DNA of 13,607 bases. Source: an uncultured Candidatus Poseidoniales archaeon (GTDB taxonomy: Archaea > Thermoplasmatota > Poseidoniia > Poseidoniales > Thalassarchaeaceae). Positions 1,425 to 13,585 of the stretch are shown here, in pieces (position 1 is the first letter of the stretch; every line of letters begins with the position of its first letter). Position numbers and translations under genes: made by a program. The notes beneath the pieces are model-generated. The model did not search any database and was not told where the DNA came from. It saw only the letters and a program-made list of their open reading frames with translations. The stretch lies in NCBI GenBank assembly GCA_964645485.1, contig CAZXZO010000001.1, positions 132,161 to 145,767 on the forward strand. The letters are read 5' to 3'.

Positions 1425-1634
1425 TCAAGCGCGGAACTGAGCAAGTAGGTCGGCAAGGTCAGCCTCACTTGGTCACAACTCGTCATTCCAAGTTCCCCAA
1501 AGCCTTGTTCAATCGGTCGTAACAGTTCAAGCGCGGAACTGAGCGAGTAGGTCGGCAAGGTCTTGTTCACTCGGTAGTAACAGTTCAAGCGCGGAACTGA
1601 GCAAGTAGGTCGGCAAGGTCAGCCTCACTTGGTC
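1425..1634. repeat. Three copies of the korB 3' end (1425-1474, 1527-1562, 1585-1634), including a 58-bp tandem unit (1504-1561 / 1562-1619)
   Basis: tcaagcgcggaactgagc(a/g)agtaggtcggcaaggtc starts at 1425, 1527 and 1585. The 1425 copy matches the gene for 50 bp. The two 58-bp units differ at 3 positions. Confidence 0.95.
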
Positions 1635-2607
1635 GCAATTGCTCATCCGATAGTTCGGCAAGGGGCGTATCGCACAACTCAAGCATCTCGTCAAGGGTTT
1701 TAGGTTCGGGGTTGTAGTACAACAGTCCAGTCACGTGTCTTTGGTCTTGTTCAGCCTGATGGATTTGCGAAAGAGCGCCCACCGCATCAGTAGGGTCGTG
1801 GTCTCCCCCAATAGTTTCGAGTCTGAGGGTTGAGCCGTCAAACAAAGTGATATCCTTGAATTCACCTTCTGGAACTTCAACTGCCTCAATGGGTTGGAAT
1901 GTAGGGATGTAATCGTATGCATGAAGTTCTGATTGGTTATCTTTCACATATCCATATGAGCGGAATGATTCGTCATTATTGCTGAAAGTTACACACGGTG
2001 ATATCACATCAATTACAGCCGTCCCACGATGGCTGATTGCTGCCTTCAAAATTGAAGTCAACTGCTTCTTTGAGCCGGAAAATGAACGTGCGACAAAAGT
2101 GCAGCCAAGATTGATTGCCATGGCGCACAAATCTATCGGCGGGCTCTCATTTGCATCTGCTTTTCTTTTCTGAGAGCCCTTTTCTACAGTAGCTGAATAT
2201 TGTCCTTTTGTCAGCCCGTAAACTCCATTATTTTCAATGATGTAAACCATGTTTAGATTTCTGCGAATTGCGTGCACAAATTGCCCGATTCCAATACTTG
2301 CAGAATCACCATCTCCTGAAACCCCGATGTAATGCAAATTTTTGTTTGTGACATTGGCACCAGTTGTTACCGATGGCATTCTTCCGTGAAGTGTATTGAA
2401 TCCGTGTGACTTACCTAGGAAGTATGCAGGGGTCTTTGATGAGCATCCAATACCGCTCATCTTGGCGATTTTTTCTGGTTGAACACCATTTTCCCAAGCC
2501 GCATTGATGACAACATTGGATATTTGGTCGTGGCCACAACCTGGGCACAACGAAGATGGTCCACCTTTGTAGTCATCTTTAGGTAAATCAATAATATTCA
2601 ATTTCAA
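1585..2607 (-). CDS. korB: 2-oxoacid:ferredoxin oxidoreductase subunit beta (TPP-binding)
   Basis: Motifs LCPGCGH, GIGCSSKT, TLHGR, GDGD...NNG (TPP motif), YGLTKGQ and SPC. The TTG start overlaps the alpha-subunit stop (TTGA). Substrate specificity cannot be fixed from sequence. Confidence 0.93.
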   Translation of the reverse strand: MKLNIIDLPKDDYKGGPSSLCPGCGHDQISNVVINAAWENGVQPEKIAKMSGIGCSSKTPAYFLGKSHGFNTLHGRMPSVTTGANVTNKNLHYIGVSGDGDSASIGIGQFVHAIRRNLNMVYIIENNGVYGLTKGQYSATVEKGSQKRKADANESPPIDLCAMAINLGCTFVARSFSGSKKQLTSILKAAISHRGTAVIDVISPCVTFSNNDESFRSYGYVKDNQSELHAYDYIPTFQPIEAVEVPEGEFKDITLFDGSTLRLETIGGDHDPTDAVGALSQIHQAEQDQRHVTGLLYYNPEPKTLDEMLELCDTPLAELSDEQLRPSEADLADLLAQFRA

Positions 2608-4652: not shown

Positions 4653-5705
4653 ATGATTCCGAGTGGATTGAAGGAGGCGTGGGAGACTGCTGAGAAGCAG
4701 ATAGACGCTGGTGAATACGATGATGCCTTGAGAACGTTGAGGCAATCTTGGTCGGAACATGGTGATAAGGCTGACCATGCAAATACATGGACTTTAGTCG
4801 GAGATGCAAAACAAGCGATAGCGGAGAGTAGTACCCCCATTAATCGCAAAATGTTACGAGATGCTAGTAATGCTTACAAAAGTGCATTGAAGAAGGATGC
4901 AAAGCACCGTGATGCACGCCGTGCTTCAAATGCTTTGCAAGTAAAAATGGATGGTTTAGGAATTAGAACATCTAGCCTACCAAAAATGATTGACGATGGA
5001 ACTCCGACAATCTATGGATTAGTTGCAATCATGCTAGTTGGAATGCTTCTTTTGACTAGTATCAAGTATATGCCTGAAATCAAGTCGGCACTGCGTCTTA
5101 CTTCGGAGGAATCTTCTGATTGGGATGCAACTCTTGCAATCGAACTTTACCCAGATGCTGCACCAAAAACTGTTGATTCTTTCAAAGACCATTCTCGAAA
5201 TGGTAGATACGATGGGATTGCATTTCATCGAGTGATTGATGGTTTTATGGTTCAAGGCGGTGATATTTCCTGTTCTGCATATCCTCTAACTCAGTCTAGC
5301 ACTGGTTGTAACCCGGGAACCGGCGGATATTCAGCAATTTGGTATGGTCAAGGTGACCAAAGCGACATGACAACTTGGACAATGCCTGACGAATTCAACA
5401 CCGCTTACCGCCATGCACCAGGAATATTGGCTATGGCTAATTCAGGAGCGAATACCGGTGGTAGTCAGTTCTACCTTGTTGACAAAGACAGCACCCCCTC
5501 TCACCTTGACGACAAGCATACTGTTTTCGGAATAGCAACAGATGATAGCACATATCTTGGTAGTTCAATTGGTGGAATTGAGTTGATTGACAAAATGAGT
5601 GAGTTACCAACAGATGAGGGTGATAGACCTTTGAGTCCTCCTTACATTCACAGCATTGAGATAGATGGTAACATGGCTTACATGCACCTAATCTTCCCAG
5701 CCTGA
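4653..5705 (+). CDS. Membrane-anchored cyclophilin-type peptidyl-prolyl isomerase with an N-terminal TPR-like helical domain
   Basis: Cyclophilin motifs IELYPDAAPKTV, FHRVIDGFMVQGGD, LAMANSGANTGGSQFY and HLDDKHTVFG. One TM helix (IYGLVAIMLVGMLLLTSI) follows a helical N-terminus with a TPR-like pattern (AYKSALKKDAKH). Confidence 0.9.
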   Translation: MIPSGLKEAWETAEKQIDAGEYDDALRTLRQSWSEHGDKADHANTWTLVGDAKQAIAESSTPINRKMLRDASNAYKSALKKDAKHRDARRASNALQVKMDGLGIRTSSLPKMIDDGTPTIYGLVAIMLVGMLLLTSIKYMPEIKSALRLTSEESSDWDATLAIELYPDAAPKTVDSFKDHSRNGRYDGIAFHRVIDGFMVQGGDISCSAYPLTQSSTGCNPGTGGYSAIWYGQGDQSDMTTWTMPDEFNTAYRHAPGILAMANSGANTGGSQFYLVDKDSTPSHLDDKHTVFGIATDDSTYLGSSIGGIELIDKMSELPTDEGDRPLSPPYIHSIEIDGNMAYMHLIFPA

Positions 5706-6192
5706 TGTTGCAACATTTTCAGGAATCAATGTTCTTGATTTTCAAGATTCCCGGCTTAATTTGGTAATTCAATTTTATTTTCAAGAATCAATGCTCTTGA
5801 ATTTCATTGAATTCAGACTTGAGGCAACAAGAAATTCGTGATGGCTTTGCAAATATATCTCAGTCCGCTTTAGCGTGAGATTCAAGGAGGTCACCCTCGC
5901 CCCGTGTACTGGGGAGATGGATGAGCGCCGTTACCGAGTTTGAATTGAGTGATGGAAGCACCGGCAATTTCTACTCGTTGCCAGCAAAAGAAGCTGAGTG
6001 GGGAATCTCACTTTCCAATCTGCCATATTCAATCAGAGTTTTGCTTGAAGCGGCCCTCAGAAATCAAGATGGATTTTTAGTCACAGCAGATGATGTCAGC
6101 CGCATCGCAAACTGGAATCCGGAAATGACTCCAACAGAAATCCCATTCATGCCAAGCCGAGTAATTCTACAAGATTTCACCGGCGTTCCAGC
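5613..6192 (+). repeat. 580-bp direct repeat, copy 1 (PPIase 3' end + intergenic + acnA 5' end); copy 2 at 10608-11187
   Basis: Constant offset of 4995 bp (the acnA ATG is at 5921 and 10916). The only differences I found are at 6121, 6134 and 6142. Confidence 0.97.
5705..5800. promoter_or_regulatory. Cluster of palindromes after the PPIase stop: ATGTTGCAACAT and TCA(A/G)GA-N8-TCTTGA-TTT-TCAAGA arrays
   Basis: Perfect 12-bp palindrome at 5705-5716. Half-sites at 5719, 5733, 5742 and at 5781, 5795. The same layout recurs at 7213-7241. Function unknown. Confidence 0.5.
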
Positions 6193-6268
6193 CACAAATT
6201 CAGTAGGAAATGAACAAAATGTACCTCTTACTATTCAATTTGTGGCTGGTGGTGAAAATGAAATTTAA
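5921..6268 (+). pseudogene. acnA': Chimeric ORF: first 91 codons of acnA fused in frame to the last 24 codons of the 7413-9896 protein
   Basis: 5921-6192 equals 10916-11187 (3 SNPs), then a single C at 6193, then 6194 onward equals 9822 onward. The product ends FTGVPA|TNSVGNEQNVPLTIQFVAGGENEI and lacks all aconitase catalytic motifs. Confidence 0.9.
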
Positions 6269-6587
6269 ATCAATTTTCTTAGTCATCACGATGATGCTCT
6301 CCCAACCGATGTTAGCTGGATGTTTTGAACGTTCATCACCAGGTGATGATCACACTTCGTCAATCATACCGAACTTTGCTGTATGTATACAGATTGAAAC
6401 AAATGTATCTGATTGGAGTATTGTACTACCCGCACCACTATACGAATATGAAAATGGGACATTAAGTTATCACCCATTCTTGAATAAACTGGTCAACGAA
6501 AGCGATGTAGAACCAATGATTATTGATGGGCGTACAGTCGAATTTAGTTACCGCAAATATAACCCTAAGTTCACCATTGAATTGTCT
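6194..6587 (+). repeat. 394-bp identical repeat (end of the HExxH gene + constant half of the lipoprotein); partner 9822-10215
   Basis: Offset 3628. No mismatch was found on reading from acaaattcagtagg to gaattgtct. Confidence 0.95.
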
Positions 6588-6929
6588 GAAAATCAGACGA
6601 TGACAATCAATGGAACAGGCTCAGTCTCAGACCAAACATCTGATATAGATAGGCAGGTATGTTCTTCAATCTCAGGAACATTTGCCTTACCAAAATTTAT
6701 TTGGCAAACATTTTGTGTTGATGACGATTGTAATCTAACTTCTATCGAAGTAAAGGTAATTGGAAATATGTCGGGTGCTTATCTAAATGGAATCCTTTCA
6801 GTTCGTGAGGATCCAATAAGAACAGAATTTGCTACTTGCTGGGGCTCAGGGATTTGGTTTCAACCATTTAATATGACACAGAAATATATTACAAGTGACT
6901 CACTCAATTGCACTTTTGTAAAAAGTTGA
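6258..6929 (+). CDS. Putative surface lipoprotein, variant 1
   Basis: Signal peptide MKFKSIFLVITMMLSQPM with an LAGC lipobox. The ATG at 6258 follows GGTGGTGA and overlaps the upstream stop; the ORF-track start at 6210 is less likely. It has conserved Cys residues and many N-x-S/T sequons. Confidence 0.8.
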   Translation: MKFKSIFLVITMMLSQPMLAGCFERSSPGDDHTSSIIPNFAVCIQIETNVSDWSIVLPAPLYEYENGTLSYHPFLNKLVNESDVEPMIIDGRTVEFSYRKYNPKFTIELSENQTMTINGTGSVSDQTSDIDRQVCSSISGTFALPKFIWQTFCVDDDCNLTSIEVKVIGNMSGAYLNGILSVREDPIRTEFATCWGSGIWFQPFNMTQKYITSDSLNCTFVKS

Positions 6930-7119
6930 TTACTGTTTCTTTTTTTTCTCTCGTAGTTGAGATTTATTTTGAACTGCCGACCGATGAGGGTGATAGACCT
7001 TTGAGTCCTCCTTACATTCACAGCATTGAGATAGATGGTAACATGGCTTACATGCACCTAATCTTCCCAGCCTGATGTTGCAACATTTTCAGGAATCAAT
7101 GTTCTTGATTTTCAAGATT
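6906..7119 (+). repeat. 214-bp repeat (lipoprotein last codons + spacer + PPIase 3' fragment + palindromes); partner 10531-10744
   Basis: Offset 3625, with one mismatch (6944 T vs 10569 G). The sub-segment 6983-7119 also equals 5613-5749. Confidence 0.95.
6971..7075 (+). pseudogene. Start-less 3' fragment of the PPIase gene (last 34 codons + stop)
   Basis: Encodes ELPTDEGDRPLSPPYIHSIEIDGNMAYMHLIFPA*, the same peptide as 5601-5705. The first four codons are recoded (GAA CTG CCG ACC vs GAG TTA CCA ACA). Confidence 0.9.
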
Positions 7120-7412
7120 TACAGACCCAATTTAGTAACTAAATTAGAGTTCATTCTTGATATTATTAGGAAGCTTTCCGAACAATTTAACCCCGTATTT
7201 CTAGAATGGTTTTCAAGAACCACCGTGCTTGATTTTCAAGATTTTCTCCCTCAATTTGTTGATTAAGATAGTAGTTTCGTTTGTTATCATTAGTAATAAC
7301 GTTGAGAAATAAATTTGATGAAATTTGTTTTTGAATCTTAAATTACCTCAAGAAAAATTAAATGAAGTACATGGGGAACTTTAATAAATTGCATAATTTA
7401 GTACTGATAATA

Positions 7413-9896
7413 ATGCCAGTCCATAAAGGGTTAATCATCTGCTTGTTTTTCAGCAGCCTTTTCACACCCTTAGTTTCAGCCCAAGGAGATATCTTGTCTG
7501 ATCCAAGTAGTGACAGTAATTTCTCTGAGTTTCTGGAAGGAACGACCTCAACTGATGCAGTTGACCCAATGGGTTGGAATCAATCTATAAATTTAATTGG
7601 AAATTATCCGACGAGAACCATTGATTTGACAGACTCTATTTCATCAGGTTGGTCTTCAACATTATCAACAATCGCTTCACTTGGACGGTCTGCGGAAATC
7701 ATGTATTCCGGTCATGAGAATATATTCTATTTTTCCCAATTGAATTATCTTAACCCTGTTGTTATTTCTAGCGAGCACGACTCTGATGGGTCTGAATTTT
7801 CTCAAATAACACTGAGGAGTAGTTTAGCACTAGGTATTACTATTGATTCAATGTCGTATGAGAAGAAGGCGGTGTTATCTTGTGATAATGACTATCAAGA
7901 TGAAGTGTCTTTTTGCAAACTATTGATTATCCATGAAAACGACAATGAGACAACAAAATTTATTTTCGAAGAGACTAATGTTTCAGGAGATTATATCCAA
8001 AATTTCTCATTGATTAACACAGAAAAAGGAAAAACTAACTTCTCATGTGATGATATAAGTTTGTTTTCAAGCGATGAACTGGAGTCATTTTCAGCCAAAT
8101 CTGTTTTGGATGTAATTAGTTTTGAAGCTTTAGCAACAGGACAATTGAACTGCTTATCGTCAACATCCTCACAAAGTACGACTACCCCAAATATCGAACA
8201 AGACTCCTTATTTCCATACCAGAGAGAGTATCCACTCGTTCGAGTTCTCTTAATTGCCAGTGAGTGGAAAGGTGTCTGGACCTCCAGCAGTAACTTGCCT
8301 TGTATTCTAACGTATAGTCACCAGACAAGTGATACCACTGAATTTCGTTCATCGAATTGCCTCTCAACTAATTTAGAAAATTCTATTGAAGCGATTAGGG
8401 ATTCGGCGGCTTGGTTCATTAGCAAAGGGATATATATTGAGTATAACTTACAAGTTTTATCAACTGTGAGTATAACTGAAGATCCAGAGAGGTTATGTGA
8501 TGGCTCTAGTGATTCATTGAGCAAATGGTGGAAATCCTTCGTAGAAGATAATTTTGACGAATCCTACAAAAGATCTCATGATTATTATGACATCGTGGGA
8601 TTATTGATTGGTTTTGACGAATTTAAAGTTAACAATAATGGAGAAGACGATGAGACATACAAAGCAGGATGCGCAATAGAAGCATCTGTGGAGAAGGATA
8701 TAGGATCTTTTTGGGTTGAATGGACTAATATTATGCCTCTTAAAGTGAATGATGTTCAAAATAAAGAATTGGTTTTAAATCATGAAATTCTCCACACATT
8801 GTCAACATATGAAACCTCTTGGTTTTTTTTCACAAAAGAACCTTTACACGATGACTCAAAGAAGGATTGTACCAATCCAATCATAGATTCTACTGTCGGA
8901 AACCCAACTCATAATCCCAGTTGTTGGAATGATGAAAATAATATTAATTATCGGGATATTGTCTCTTCAACAAAGACAAAAGTGCAGAATCATGCAATTG
9001 ATTGGCTACCCTATAAGAGGATAATTAGATTTGGGCCTGGCGATTCTACTAACTTTGAATATGATGATGCTAGTAATTCATTAATTTCAGATTCTCTGTC
9101 AGTTTCTGAGTTATGGATTGATATTTCACATGAGCCCATAACTATGTGGGTTGATGAGTTTAGATACATTGAAGTTGGTGATTATCCGTTTTCAAAGCGA
9201 CCATTTTATAATTTCCATTACAAACTCGTAGAGAATGAAAATTATGAGACCGTTGTGTTCAGTATCCCATTTTCTGGCCAAGAATCTTATTCAATAACAT
9301 ATGGATCTCGATGCACTTCAACAATAAACGAATTCTTTGCAGGAATTATGGGTGGTATCACAAATTCTCCAAATCAGCCATTTGATACTTGGTTAGGCTA
9401 TGCATCTAATTATATTCGTGATGGAAAGGATTCAACCATTTATCATTCTAATAGTGAATGGATCTCGTTACCGGTTGATTGTAACAACCCTGCTTATGAA
9501 GAAAGAACCCCTTATGTTTTCGAATATAATTCGGGATTTATTACATCAGTGTGTGGGTTAACCACTCAAGAACCATTTGCATATAAAGTCTGTAAAGATG
9601 GTTCACCAACATTATCTAGAATCAAAAATGATGGTGGTTCAGGCGACCCGATTTCATGGAAAAATCTTGATGTATCAGAAACGAGTGCTCTTCAATATAT
9701 CATGATTTGGCCAGCCTATGAAGTGCAAAACCCCGACGGTTCTATTCGATGGGGAATATACAATTGGAATTCAATTACATATACTCAATGGGACTATACT
9801 GAATTGTTTGTTTCATATAATACAAATTCAGTAGGAAATGAACAAAATGTACCTCTTACTATTCAATTTGTGGCTGGTGGTGAAAATGAAATTTAA
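7413..9896 (+). CDS. Large secreted hypothetical protein with an HExxH zincin motif (putative metallopeptidase)
   Basis: Signal peptide MPVHKGLIICLFFSSLFTPLVSA|Q if started at 7413; the ORF is open from 7362. HEILH lies at 8781-8795, preceded by DIVGLL and AGCA segments. The protein is Ser/Thr/Asp- and Cys-rich. Confidence 0.75.
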   Translation: MPVHKGLIICLFFSSLFTPLVSAQGDILSDPSSDSNFSEFLEGTTSTDAVDPMGWNQSINLIGNYPTRTIDLTDSISSGWSSTLSTIASLGRSAEIMYSGHENIFYFSQLNYLNPVVISSEHDSDGSEFSQITLRSSLALGITIDSMSYEKKAVLSCDNDYQDEVSFCKLLIIHENDNETTKFIFEETNVSGDYIQNFSLINTEKGKTNFSCDDISLFSSDELESFSAKSVLDVISFEALATGQLNCLSSTSSQSTTTPNIEQDSLFPYQREYPLVRVLLIASEWKGVWTSSSNLPCILTYSHQTSDTTEFRSSNCLSTNLENSIEAIRDSAAWFISKGIYIEYNLQVLSTVSITEDPERLCDGSSDSLSKWWKSFVEDNFDESYKRSHDYYDIVGLLIGFDEFKVNNNGEDDETYKAGCAIEASVEKDIGSFWVEWTNIMPLKVNDVQNKELVLNHEILHTLSTYETSWFFFTKEPLHDDSKKDCTNPIIDSTVGNPTHNPSCWNDENNINYRDIVSSTKTKVQNHAIDWLPYKRIIRFGPGDSTNFEYDDASNSLISDSLSVSELWIDISHEPITMWVDEFRYIEVGDYPFSKRPFYNFHYKLVENENYETVVFSIPFSGQESYSITYGSRCTSTINEFFAGIMGGITNSPNQPFDTWLGYASNYIRDGKDSTIYHSNSEWISLPVDCNNPAYEERTPYVFEYNSGFITSVCGLTTQEPFAYKVCKDGSPTLSRIKNDGGSGDPISWKNLDVSETSALQYIMIWPAYEVQNPDGSIRWGIYNWNSITYTQWDYTELFVSYNTNSVGNEQNVPLTIQFVAGGENEI

Positions 9897-10554
9897 ATCA
9901 ATTTTCTTAGTCATCACGATGATGCTCTCCCAACCGATGTTAGCTGGATGTTTTGAACGTTCATCACCAGGTGATGATCACACTTCGTCAATCATACCGA
10001 ACTTTGCTGTATGTATACAGATTGAAACAAATGTATCTGATTGGAGTATTGTACTACCCGCACCACTATACGAATATGAAAATGGGACATTAAGTTATCA
10101 CCCATTCTTGAATAAACTGGTCAACGAAAGCGATGTAGAACCAATGATTATTGATGGGCGTACAGTCGAATTTAGTTACCGCAAATATAACCCTAAGTTC
10201 ACCATTGAATTGTCTAACAATTTGACGATGACCATACGTGGGGTTGACTCAGTATCGCATGACATGGGTCCAAGTTATGAAGCCTGCTCGCACATTAGGG
10301 GGACATTTACTTTGCCAAAATTTATCTGGCAGACTGTATGTATTGAAGAACATTGTAATCAAATTCCTCTCAAGGTTATACTTGACGATGATAGTCCCTC
10401 AGCTTATCTGAATGGGGTTTTATCGGTGAGTGGAGGATTTGTAAACACTGAATATGCTAAATGCGCAGGCTCAGGTATTTGGTTGGAACCATTGAATTTG
10501 ACACAGGAATATGTTAATAGTACCCAGCTTAATTGCACTTTTGTAAAAAGTTGA
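9886..10554 (+). CDS. Putative surface lipoprotein, variant 2
   Basis: Same signal peptide, LAGC lipobox and first 110 codons as variant 1. The ATG at 9886 follows GGTGGTGA and overlaps the upstream gene's stop by 11 nt. Confidence 0.8.
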   Translation: MKFKSIFLVITMMLSQPMLAGCFERSSPGDDHTSSIIPNFAVCIQIETNVSDWSIVLPAPLYEYENGTLSYHPFLNKLVNESDVEPMIIDGRTVEFSYRKYNPKFTIELSNNLTMTIRGVDSVSHDMGPSYEACSHIRGTFTLPKFIWQTVCIEEHCNQIPLKVILDDDSPSAYLNGVLSVSGGFVNTEYAKCAGSGIWLEPLNLTQEYVNSTQLNCTFVKS

Positions 10555-10595
10555 TTACTGTTTCTTTTGTTTCTCTCGTAGTTGAGATTTATTTT

Positions 10596-10700
10596 GAACT
10601 GCCGACCGATGAGGGTGATAGACCTTTGAGTCCTCCTTACATTCACAGCATTGAGATAGATGGTAACATGGCTTACATGCACCTAATCTTCCCAGCCTGA
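10596..10700 (+). pseudogene. Second start-less 3' fragment of the PPIase gene
   Basis: Identical to 6971-7075, including the recoded ELPT codons. Confidence 0.9.
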
Positions 10701-11187
10701 TGTTGCAACATTTTCAGGAATCAATGTTCTTGATTTTCAAGATTCCCGGCTTAATTTGGTAATTCAATTTTATTTTCAAGAATCAATGCTCTTGAATTTC
10801 ATTGAATTCAGACTTGAGGCAACAAGAAATTCGTGATGGCTTTGCAAATATATCTCAGTCCGCTTTAGCGTGAGATTCAAGGAGGTCACCCTCGCCCCGT
10901 GTACTGGGGAGATGGATGAGCGCCGTTACCGAGTTTGAATTGAGTGATGGAAGCACCGGCAATTTCTACTCGTTGCCAGCAAAAGAAGCTGAGTGGGGAA
11001 TCTCACTTTCCAATCTGCCATATTCAATCAGAGTTTTGCTTGAAGCGGCCCTCAGAAATCAAGATGGATTTTTAGTCACAGCAGATGATGTCAGCCGCAT
11101 CGCAAACTGGAATCCTGAAATGACTCCAGCAGAAATTCCATTCATGCCAAGCCGAGTAATTCTACAAGATTTCACCGGCGTTCCAGC
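10608..11187 (+). repeat. 580-bp direct repeat, copy 2
   Basis: Matches 5613-6192 except at 11116, 11129 and 11137. It continues into the intact acnA. Confidence 0.97.
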
Positions 11188-13585
11188 AGTCGTTGACATT
11201 GCGGCGCTCCGCGACGCAATGGTCCAATTAGGCGGCAACCCACAAAAAGTCAACCCGCAAGTTCCAGTCGACCTAGTAATTGACCATTCAGTTCAGGTCG
11301 ATTTTTCGGGTCTTTTCCCCGACGCGCGTGAGCGCAATTTGGAGATTGAGTATGAGCGAAACATGGAGCGGTATCAGTTTCTAAAGTGGGGCCAGCAGAG
11401 CCTTGACAATTTCCGTGCGGTACCTCCGGGAAGGGGGATTGTGCATCAGGTAAATCTCGAGTGGATTGCCAGTGTGGCGCGCCAAGAAAAAGGGGTTTGG
11501 TTGTGCGATTCTTTGGTCGGTACTGACTCTCACACCACGATGATAAATGGCTTGGGTGTTTTAGGTTGGGGGGTCGGCGGAATTGAGGCTGAAGCGGTGA
11601 TGCTCGGCCAGCCGATTTACATGCTTTTACCAGAAGTTGTTGGCTTTGAATTGACCGGCTGTTTGCAGCCGGGGGTGACTGCAACTGATATGACTTTACG
11701 AATTGTTGAGATTTTGCGAAATCATGGATGTGTTGGAAAATTCGTTGAATTTTTTGGGGACGGTCTAGCCAATATGACGCTACCTGACCGGGCCACGATT
11801 GCTAACATGGCGCCCGAATATGGAGCGACATGTGGATTTTTCCCAGTTGATGAAACAACTCTAGATTACATGCGGCTTTCAGGTCGGGATGAAGAACACA
11901 TCGAGAATGTGAAGCGATTTATGACCGCTCAAGGTATGTTCCTGACAGCTAATTCTCCTGACCCTGACTTCACATCGGTTTTGAGATTGGATTTGGGTTC
12001 AGTTGAGCCGGCTTTGGCGGGGCCAAAACGGCCACAAGATTTGGTCAATTTGAGCGAAATGAAAGAGCATTGGGTGGAGAGTTTGACCGCTCCACTTGGG
12101 CATCAAGGTCATGGGCTTGATACTAGCGAAGTTGATGTAAAAATTGACGTTGAAGGCGAAGATTTCTGCTTAACACATGGCGATGTGGTGATTGCTGCAA
12201 TTACGTCTTGTACTAATACCTCAAATCCGTCAGTCATGTTGGCGGCGGGACTAATTGCCAAGAAAGCCAATGCGCTTGGGATGAATATCAAACCCTGGGT
12301 GAAGCCGAGTTTAGCACCGGGGAGTAGGGTTGTAACTGAATATTATGATGCGGCTGGGCTTACCGACGATTTGGCGGCTTTAGGATTCAATAATGTTGGA
12401 TACGGATGTACAACTTGTATCGGAAACTCGGGTCCGCTTGCGGACAATATTGAGTCAGCAATTGAATCTGGAAATCTGATTGTTGGAAGTGTGATTTCAG
12501 GCAACAGAAATTTTGAAGGTAGAGTCCATCAAAAAGTCAAGGGCAGTTATCTTGGTAGCCCACCATTAGTAGTCGCTTATGCATTGGCGGGCACACTCAA
12601 CATTGATCTTCAGAATGATGCATTAGGTCAAGATTCAGATGGAAACGATGTTTTCTTGGCCGATATTTGGCCGACAGATGCAGAAATCCAAGCAACTATT
12701 GCGACTTCAATCAGTCCAGAAATGTTCCAAGAAAGATACTCTGATGCAACCGATGAGCCGCGCTGGAATGCAATCCCCAGTGAGGCTAGCGACCTATACC
12801 CTTGGCAAGAAGATTCTACTTACATTCGTCTGCCTTCATTCTTTGAAGGGATAACTCCTGAACCAGCGCCAATTCAAGAGATTAGTGGGGCCAATGTCTT
12901 ACTGATGTTGGGTGATTCCACGACTACAGACCACATCTCGCCTGCAGGAGCATTTCCACATACCGGCCCGGCCGGAAAATATCTGATGGATAACGGTGTA
13001 AAACCGCGCCATTTCAACTCGTTTGGTAGCCGGCGCGGCAACCACGAAGTGATGATGAGAGGTACTTTTGCCAACGTCAGAATCCGCAATAAAATTGCAC
13101 CAGGAACCGAAGGCGGATATACAACATTCTTCCCGACAGGAGAAGTAACTTCAGTCTATGAGGCAAGCATGAGGTACCAAGAAGCAGGCACGCCTCTAGT
13201 AGTCCTCGCTGGCTCGCAGTACGGCACTGGAAGCAGTAGAGACTGGGCAGCAAAAGGAACACTTTTACTCGGCGTAAAAGCGGTTATCGCTACATCATTT
13301 GAGAGAATTCACCGCTCAAATTTAGTCGGTATGGGGGTACTTCCCCTGACCTTTATTGAAGGGCAAGACCCAGAAGTTTTGGGGTTGGACGGAAGTGAGA
13401 CATTTGATATTCCTGCGCATGGAGAATTTGAACCCATGAGTGAGATGACCGTGACCGCACACAAGGCTGATGGGACAAGCATCACTTTCCAGACAATCGT
13501 AAGACTAGATACACCTGTTGAAGTGGACTATTATGACAACGGGGGAATCCTCCAAACCGTTTTAAGGAACCTCGCTCAAGAATAG
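10916..13585 (+). CDS. acnA: Aconitate hydratase A (AcnA/IRP family), full length 889 aa
   Basis: Motifs SRVILQDFTGVP, DLVIDHSVQVD, GTDSHT, ITSCTNTSNP, GYGCTTCIGNSG (three Fe-S Cys), GNRNFEGR, TTDHISPAG and YGTGSSRDWAAKG. Confidence 0.98.
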   Translation: MSAVTEFELSDGSTGNFYSLPAKEAEWGISLSNLPYSIRVLLEAALRNQDGFLVTADDVSRIANWNPEMTPAEIPFMPSRVILQDFTGVPAVVDIAALRDAMVQLGGNPQKVNPQVPVDLVIDHSVQVDFSGLFPDARERNLEIEYERNMERYQFLKWGQQSLDNFRAVPPGRGIVHQVNLEWIASVARQEKGVWLCDSLVGTDSHTTMINGLGVLGWGVGGIEAEAVMLGQPIYMLLPEVVGFELTGCLQPGVTATDMTLRIVEILRNHGCVGKFVEFFGDGLANMTLPDRATIANMAPEYGATCGFFPVDETTLDYMRLSGRDEEHIENVKRFMTAQGMFLTANSPDPDFTSVLRLDLGSVEPALAGPKRPQDLVNLSEMKEHWVESLTAPLGHQGHGLDTSEVDVKIDVEGEDFCLTHGDVVIAAITSCTNTSNPSVMLAAGLIAKKANALGMNIKPWVKPSLAPGSRVVTEYYDAAGLTDDLAALGFNNVGYGCTTCIGNSGPLADNIESAIESGNLIVGSVISGNRNFEGRVHQKVKGSYLGSPPLVVAYALAGTLNIDLQNDALGQDSDGNDVFLADIWPTDAEIQATIATSISPEMFQERYSDATDEPRWNAIPSEASDLYPWQEDSTYIRLPSFFEGITPEPAPIQEISGANVLLMLGDSTTTDHISPAGAFPHTGPAGKYLMDNGVKPRHFNSFGSRRGNHEVMMRGTFANVRIRNKIAPGTEGGYTTFFPTGEVTSVYEASMRYQEAGTPLVVLAGSQYGTGSSRDWAAKGTLLLGVKAVIATSFERIHRSNLVGMGVLPLTFIEGQDPEVLGLDGSETFDIPAHGEFEPMSEMTVTAHKADGTSITFQTIVRLDTPVEVDYYDNGGILQTVLRNLAQE

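Follow-up and report, generated by a model that had tools for sequence, protein, structure and literature searches.

Systems such as vlsE/vls of Borrelia, pilE/pilS of Neisseria and tprK of Treponema combine one expression site with many silent partial cassettes and a rapid turnover of variants inside a population. Interlocus (ectopic) gene conversion also takes place between prokaryotic duplicates, for example among the Neisseria opa genes and between duplicated tuf genes. In Staphylococcus aureus, the tandem lipoprotein paralogs of the lpl family, located on the nuSa-alpha island, carry 5' and 3' variable regions around a highly conserved block which serves homologous recombination, and strains of this species differ by shuffled lpl variable regions (Tsuru & Kobayashi 2008, PMC2568036). 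Replacement or flexible islands for cell-surface proteins, such as the cell-wall island of Haloquadratum walsbyi, have been described in aquatic prokaryotes and archaea (PMC4535781; also PMC4033161). We have analyzed a pair of lipoprotein genes, L1 and L2, in a 13,607-nucleotide stretch of DNA (the window) from a metagenome-assembled genome (MAG) of an uncultured Candidatus Poseidoniales archaeon. A preliminary description of this DNA had presented the pair as a candidate cassette-swapping system for surface diversification; in our view it is likely that a small segment was duplicated here and its copies were then reshaped by ordinary homologous recombination, and that the locus is not a dedicated diversification machine.

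L1 (6258-6929, 223 amino acids from MKFKS) and L2 (9886-10554, 222 amino acids from MKFKS) are both located on the plus strand, as are the other genes and repeats described below unless indicated. Positions 6194-7145 were found to align to 9822-10769 at 87% overall identity. Self-BLAST and pairwise alignment confirmed the architecture reported earlier for the pair: in this MAG the two copies are exactly identical over 394 bp (left constant block, 6194-6587 = 9822-10215), then switch abruptly to a divergent segment, block B, of 106 codons in L1 (V1, 6588-6905) and 105 codons in L2 (V2, 10216-10530), in which 51 of 106 aligned residues are identical. Identity resumes at the residues NCTFVKS and the stop codon and reaches 7118/10744 with one mismatch, including an uninterrupted run of 174 bp (6945-7118). 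Within block B, the four cysteines and the motifs LPKFIWQT, AYLNG and GSGIW are indeed fixed, and the three patches said to be almost fully changed retain 0 of 10, 3 of 20 and 0 of 6 identical residues. When the 124 differences between the two copies were permuted 20000 times, an identical run of 394 or more was never reached, the longest permuted run being 98; the mosaic pattern of the two genes is thus far beyond chance.

Both genes start with an ATG that overlaps the stop codon of an upstream open reading frame (ORF) and is preceded by a GGTGGTGA ribosome-binding site. Their signal peptides end in the lipobox pattern [LVI][ASTVI][GAS]C, in both cases as LAGC, and the N-terminus MKFKSIFLVITMMLSQPMLAGC is invariant in six of six family members; besides the lipobox cysteine, six further cysteines are conserved in the lipoproteins. 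Sequons of the N-x-S/T type number nine in L1, seven in the L2 of the MAG and five in the form of L2 found in the population (see below). Two full-length paralogous lipoprotein genes, L1 and L2, are present in one island.

The preliminary description was correct for the pair itself and partly missed the wider repeat structure around it. By self-BLAST, a larger repeat encloses the two genes, 5607-6192 matching 10602-11187 at 99.1% identity. This repeat begins within the gene for a cyclophilin-type PPIase (4653-5705; 350 amino acids with an N-terminal membrane segment; Pfam PF00160, E 1.9e-34), the last 99 bp of which open a repeat of about 142 bp, H, consisting of the PPIase tail and a hairpin. 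As H is found three times (H, 5607-5749; H*, 6977-7118; H', 10602-10744), the cyclophilin tail is present in three copies; H differs from H* and H' at 5609 and 5612 alone. Further along the larger repeat, R (5775-6192) is a duplicate of the upstream region of the aconitase gene and the first 272 bp of that gene. It is identical to its counterpart R' (10770-11187) except for three single-nucleotide polymorphisms (SNPs), at 6121, 6134 and 6142, and R' covers the upstream region and the 5' end of the intact aconitase gene (10916-13585; 889 amino acids; Pfam PF00330 and PF00694).

At an illegitimate junction (6192/6194), the reading frame passes from codon 91 of aconitase into the final 23 codons of a gene for an 844-amino-acid protein. 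The result is a chimeric ORF of 115 amino acids (5921-6268; 91 aconitase codons and the 23 foreign ones), the stop codon of which overlaps the L1 start in the same geometry in which the stop of the 844-aa gene overlaps the L2 start. The L1 unit (6194-6976) thus comprises the 844-aa gene tail, L1 and non-coding sequence, and the lipoprotein repeat starts 64 bp before the lipoprotein ATG, within these last 23 codons. The first copy of the right constant flank (6906-7118) contains the end of L1 (seven codons and the stop), followed by 47 non-coding bp and H*. It is followed by the 844-aa gene itself (7362-9896), which encodes a secreted orphan protein with a signal peptide, 15 cysteines and an HExxH motif (HEILH at 8781), then by the L2 unit (9822-10601), of the same composition as the L1 unit, and by the second right constant flank (10531-10744), made of the gene end, non-coding sequence and H'. 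The extra 1370 bp at 5607-6976 are a circular permutation of 9822-11187.

Two additional sets of short repeats were observed in the window. Six copies of a 62-nt repeat family (5716-5839, 7086-7271 and 10711-10834) lie where each H copy ends on the right and upstream of the 844-aa gene; the repeat holds the perfect hairpin TCTTGA-TTT-TCAAGA and might serve in termination, in recombination or as a binding site. On the other side of the PPIase gene, the OFOR beta-subunit gene (1585-2607, minus strand) is followed just downstream (window positions 1425-1646) by two or three repeats of its 3' tail, in units of 58-62 nt with 79-94% identity, a signature like that of the duplicated cyclophilin gene tail.

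Nine metagenome contigs from seven assemblies (JGI 3300009481, 3300009703, 3300011013 and 3300024344; ENA ERZ27249630, ERZ27251151 and ERZ27251152) were retrieved by looking up the exact proteins and by a pattern scan, the scan of metagenome contigs returning a single locus. Both genes, in the order of the MAG, are present on each of the contigs L010 (4759 bp), L047 (4850 bp) and L048 (5139 bp, extending from H to H'); one of these is a JGI contig and two, L047 among them, are MEGAHIT k141 contigs. The order H-R-junction-L1-H*-844-L2-H' is therefore reproduced in three independent contigs, and the junction with L1 was also found in L004 and L005, with 0-1 differences. In five independent contigs L1 is identical or differs by 1 nt. 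The preliminary description had named as a danger to its proposal that variants of different strains had been merged by the assembler. Single contigs in three assemblies support the location of both genes on one molecule, and a strain merge of two alleles was rejected, as the two genes occur together, in an unchanged order, on three independent contigs. A plain tandem order, P-H-U-L2-H-R-L1-H-R-acn, was likewise rejected, as L010, L047 and L048 all show R-junction-L1-H*-U-L2-H'.

The same contigs changed the picture of the left half of the genes. In each of the seven contigs with L2 coverage, differences at 64-65 positions and a 3-nt insertion set the sequence apart from the MAG, all confined to 9881-10158, where the MAG has the L1 sequence. 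Because of this divergent patch, the 394-bp identity is specific to this MAG, and the 5' half of the genes, earlier described as constant, is not so in the population. There, L1 and L2 contain two variable blocks, A (approximately 6320-6524 in copy-1 coordinates) and B, separated by an identical block of 57-63 bp (6525-6587). The V2 block of the MAG matches the metagenome contigs throughout, except for an SNP at 10236 in two of the seven, and V1 is invariant in five assemblies. When L010 was compared to the MAG over 4.76 kb, the only difference besides 9881-10158 was an SNP at 10622, where the MAG has A, as in H and H*, and H' has G in the six other contigs that extend this far; here again, a change specific to the MAG brings the repeat copies closer to each other. 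The MAG-type L2 protein (P0002) is found on one contig only and the population type (P0004/P0014) on several, so that the combination A1+V2, as opposed to N'+V2 in seven contigs, has the MAG contig as its single witness. The most eye-catching feature of the locus, the perfect identity over 394 bp, has one MAG contig as its sole source.

One possible explanation for this observation is a real and recent event, in which L2 was converted by L1 over a tract of at least 278 bp (9881-10158) and at most 394 bp (9822-10215); we lean towards this explanation. An alternative scenario, possible and in our view the less probable, is that the 394-bp identity is an assembly artefact and that the L2 of this genome really has the divergent patch, the assembler having threaded the L1 patch into both copies via flanking identical blocks of 59-66 bp. 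The two-gene mosaic would in that case stay real, but with two variable blocks. The distribution of the two L2 types, one contig against seven contigs from seven assemblies, speaks for an artefact, as do the identity of the MAG to L010 elsewhere in the 4.76 kb and the direction of the change at 10622. The MAG (G000; 1.94 Mb, 82% complete) is moreover scaffolded: its 162-kb sequence C1 is a scaffold, all 44 of 44 gaps in the MAG consist of 100 N, and the window is one 13.6-kb contig between two such gaps (C1 132060-132160 and 145767-145867). Conversely, the R/R' SNPs, the differences at the leading edge of H and the V1 and V2 blocks were all kept apart at a 1:1 copy number, and three or four assembly bubbles (9881, 9948/9959 and the patch) must all have collapsed to the L1 allele for an artefact to arise. 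The divergent patch is also absent from the other contigs of the MAG, though a short leftover contig would escape binning. As a practical consequence, claims derived from perfect repeats inside MAG contigs need read-level support.

The divergence of the two genes was analyzed block by block by the Nei-Gojobori method. For block B, the comparison of L1 with L2 yielded a synonymous divergence (dS) of 1.4, which is saturated, a non-synonymous divergence (dN) of 0.41 and a dN/dS of 0.29; for block A, L1 compared to the population L2 yielded a dS of 0.58, a dN of 0.32 and a dN/dS of 0.54. Nucleotide differences between L1 and L2 amount to 29% in block A (population state) and 39% in block B, as compared to about 0-1% in R, H, 6194-6319, 6525-6587 and 6906-7118. 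In the signal-peptide block, 6525-6587, the gene tail and the 47 bp of non-coding sequence, there are 0-1 differences between the paralogs, synonymous sites included, and none was counted in 6525-6587 and 6906-6996, at synonymous or non-coding sites either. At these near-identical blocks, the signal peptide excepted, G011 (Methanobacteriota archaeon BH15, a same-genus MAG of a sister species) differs by 23-43%, and the identity of the paralog flanks therefore reflects recombination or recency and not constraint. Blocks conserved to an extent beyond selection thus lie beside old divergent ones.

The histories of the two variable blocks also differ, as can be seen from their distance patterns: in block B, every bootstrap replicate (100%) placed L1 and L2 farther apart (0.38) than L2 and its G011 and P0003 homologues (0.25-0.29), and in block A the three lineages are equidistant. 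The saturated dS and the bootstrapped distances bear out the earlier view of an old, divergent C-terminal block between young, identical flanks. The exchange proposed to account for it was upheld in part: flanks identical at synonymous and non-coding sites require recombination or gene conversion. Patch-wise dN/dS had been suggested as a check; for the blocks as wholes the values are 0.29-0.54, and a diversifying signal was not seen. These data fit two histories, one in which old paralogs have been repeatedly homogenised in their flanks, and one in which a recent duplicate has imported old foreign blocks via identical anchors; in the recent-duplicate reading, the divergence is the ~1% of R, H and the constant blocks.

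A smaller mosaic was observed in the 844-aa gene of the strain represented in ENA ERZ27249630 (L048), where a 45-bp patch at 8310-8354 contains 20 differences and turns the inter-cysteine loop TSDTTEFRSS into TSGTPPYDSS within nearly identical flanking sequence. The partner gene of the lipoproteins is therefore likewise subject to a patchy exchange between alleles.

The genes for OFOR, PPIase and aconitase lie next to each other in some 30 relatives from across the order, with aconitase starting approximately 90 bp after the PPIase gene. Among 41 close relatives, the 844-aa and lipoprotein genes are present in this MAG and in G011 only, and a search with the lipoprotein alone found the family in two of 401 genomes of the order. 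The arrangement in G011 is PPIase-H-844-lipo-H'-aconitase, with one lipoprotein gene. The synteny of the ~30 relatives and the simple arrangement of G011 show that the island (3.6 kb, two genes, GC content of 36% vs 44-48% in the flanks) was inserted at the cyclophilin tail in this lineage specifically, and the single lipoprotein gene of G011 marks the second lipoprotein unit as a later addition in this species. The three H copies of this species are at least 98.6% identical, as compared to 73% for the two of G011, which suggests ongoing homogenisation or a recent re-creation of the repeat in this lineage. A relative that would point to a viral origin was sought in IMG/VR and not found.

The following course of events would account for the locus. 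A low-GC island was inserted between the cyclophilin and aconitase genes in the ancestor shared with the sister species G011, leaving a duplicated cyclophilin tail (H) on either side. In the present species, a 1370-bp unit, made of the 844-aa gene tail, a lipoprotein gene, H, the aconitase promoter and 272 bp of aconitase coding sequence, now lies between the cyclophilin gene and the island as well. This unit may have been a circle, closed by the junction 6192/6194 and integrated through a single crossover in H; a circle and one such crossover would yield exactly the observed order. L1 would probably be driven by the duplicated aconitase promoter, through the chimeric leader ORF. The copies are mosaics in which blocks differing by ~0-1% alternate with the old blocks A and B, a state which could have been reached by gene conversion between the paralogs and/or by import of a divergent allele through identical anchors. 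In the MAG, finally, block A of L2 would have been overwritten by 278-394 bp of L1 sequence, to give a new A1+V2 protein and the 394-bp identity.

Several points weigh against this course of events as a whole. Its last step, the conversion, is seen in this scaffolded MAG alone, with P0002 on one contig. Apart from two differences, each of which raises the similarity of the repeats, the MAG is identical to L010, and an assembler error would look alike. Direction and timing of the exchanges, furthermore, are not resolvable with four taxa. Even so, a segmental duplication reshaped by ordinary homologous recombination is the explanation that we favor. The locus opens no new mechanism; it is a clean, population-level example of the evolution of a very small island for surface proteins in a marine archaeon not yet cultured, by gene-tail insertion, a circularly permuted re-insertion of a 1.4-kb piece that would capture a housekeeping promoter, and block-wise recombination between paralogs.

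A different explanation, close to that of the preliminary description, is programmed surface diversification, in which the variable domain would often be replaced, guided by the anchors, with one drawn from a pool of cassettes, and viruses or grazers would thereby be evaded. The constant-variable-constant layout, the conserved cysteines and the N-glycosylation sequons that differ among the variants are in line with such a system, and so are the one block-shuffling event in the MAG (A1+V2) and the 45-bp mosaic loop in the 844-aa gene of one strain. A donor pool, however, was not found: searches of the 82%-complete, 1.94-Mb MAG by blastn and tblastn, using the region and both proteins, returned no third copy, fragment or silent cassette besides the two full-length genes. 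A single expression site is not indicated either: both genes are complete, with ATG, ribosome-binding site and a coupled upstream ORF, and both have upstream promoter regions. The entire lipoprotein family comprises five protein clusters in 5.8 billion proteins. Its block B alleles are V1 and V2 in this species and one each in two related lineages (G011 and P0003), and in the nine contigs, as across eight or more assemblies, each keeps without exception to its own site, V1 to that of the aconitase leader and V2 to that following the 844-aa gene.

Neither a cassette pool nor many variants of the vls/pilS/tprK kind was thus found in the MAG, among public proteins or in the nine contigs. Counting the middle blocks between the same anchors had been suggested earlier, and the outcome, just two in this species, is the one that the preliminary description itself had named as refuting its proposal. 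The dN/dS of 0.29 with saturated dS, the lack of a recombinase-sized ORF in the ORF list of the window, the lack of PADLOC and Pfam matches, and the occurrence of the family in so few genomes of the order all argue in the same direction. The proposed cassette-swapping or antigenic-variation-like system is therefore not supported by the two stable, site-bound blocks, and we regard programmed diversification as very improbable.

Targeted hypermutation of the variable blocks, for example by a diversity-generating retroelement (DGR), was also considered, as the differences are clustered in patches on a conserved scaffold. Its probability appears negligible: a template, which would be a third copy of the block, was not found in the MAG; substitutions in block B affect all four bases, with an excess at third codon positions and many synonymous changes; and the blocks are stable, V2 being the same in seven assemblies (with the 10236 SNP in two) and V1 in five. 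An unexplained ORF of the size of a reverse transcriptase was not found in the ORF list of the window, and the features of a DGR target were not seen.

A more limited form of specialization is that the conserved blocks (6194-6319, 6525-6587 and 6906-7118) and H are maintained as recombination anchors. We consider this improbable. If it were true, two lipoprotein modules would be reshuffled between differently promoted sites, the aconitase promoter and the operon of the HExxH protein, and further lipoprotein cassettes could dock at the cyclophilin tail, so that this uncultured archaeon would possess a minimal locus for surface variation, similar to an integron.

The 844-aa gene is translationally coupled to L2, and the HEILH motif of its product is shared with the ortholog in G011 and with a paralog of 788 amino acids on contig C10 of the MAG, 26% identical to the 844-aa protein. 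This paralog is part of a paralogous two-gene module (34309-37303), in which it is followed by a 193-aa, N-terminally membrane-anchored protein; the latter weakly resembles block A of the lipoproteins (E 6e-4 in pairwise comparison). As this paralog also precedes a small membrane-anchored protein, the lipoprotein and the secreted, metalloprotease-like protein are probably partners, with the lipoprotein as the membrane-anchored one. On the basis of their sequences, both lipoproteins are predicted to be glycosylated, disulfide-bonded surface partners of the HExxH protein.

Searches for relatives outside the family added little to this prediction. The 844-aa protein and the lipoproteins had no match in Pfam, NCBIfam or PADLOC, and a profile search of 1.84 billion representatives returned the family itself only, besides two spurious matches that were rejected: P0006, a translated tandem repeat, and P0007, a cysteine-rich EB-module repeat protein. 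A usable match was not found in the ESM Atlas, and the AF2 model built on a 6-sequence alignment (pLDDT 38.5, pTM 0.39) was unusable. A scan for bacterial promoters and terminators gave chance-level results, its models being bacterial and not applicable to an archaeon.

When compared to the described systems, the locus shares with vls, pilS and tprK a surface protein with variable segments bounded by conserved anchors; it differs from them in having two complete genes and two stable alleles, with silent copies not found in the 82%-complete MAG. As in ectopic gene conversion, blocks identical at synonymous and non-coding sites lie beside old divergence, with tracts of a few hundred bp; import of a foreign allele is not separable here from conversion between L1 and L2. 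The likeness to flexible islands (PMC4535781, PMC4033161) lies in the low GC content, in the lineage-restricted, orphan genes for secreted or surface proteins, in the fixed site and in alleles shaped by recombination; unlike such islands, the present one measures 3.6 kb, contains two genes and so far shows almost no variation in gene content among the sampled strains.

The best match in kind, and the closest analogue, are the lpl lipoprotein paralogs of S. aureus. The two are set apart by the number of copies (two at this locus, not strictly in tandem, as the 844-aa gene lies between them), by the archaeal host, by the lack of any sequence relationship and by the single shuffling event seen here, to which the assembly caveat applies. 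They have in common paralogous lipoprotein genes on an island, with a conserved block, here the 57-63 bp at 6525-6587, that parts two variable ones, A and B; the A1+V2 combination of the MAG contig, if real, would be a counterpart of the shuffled lpl genes.

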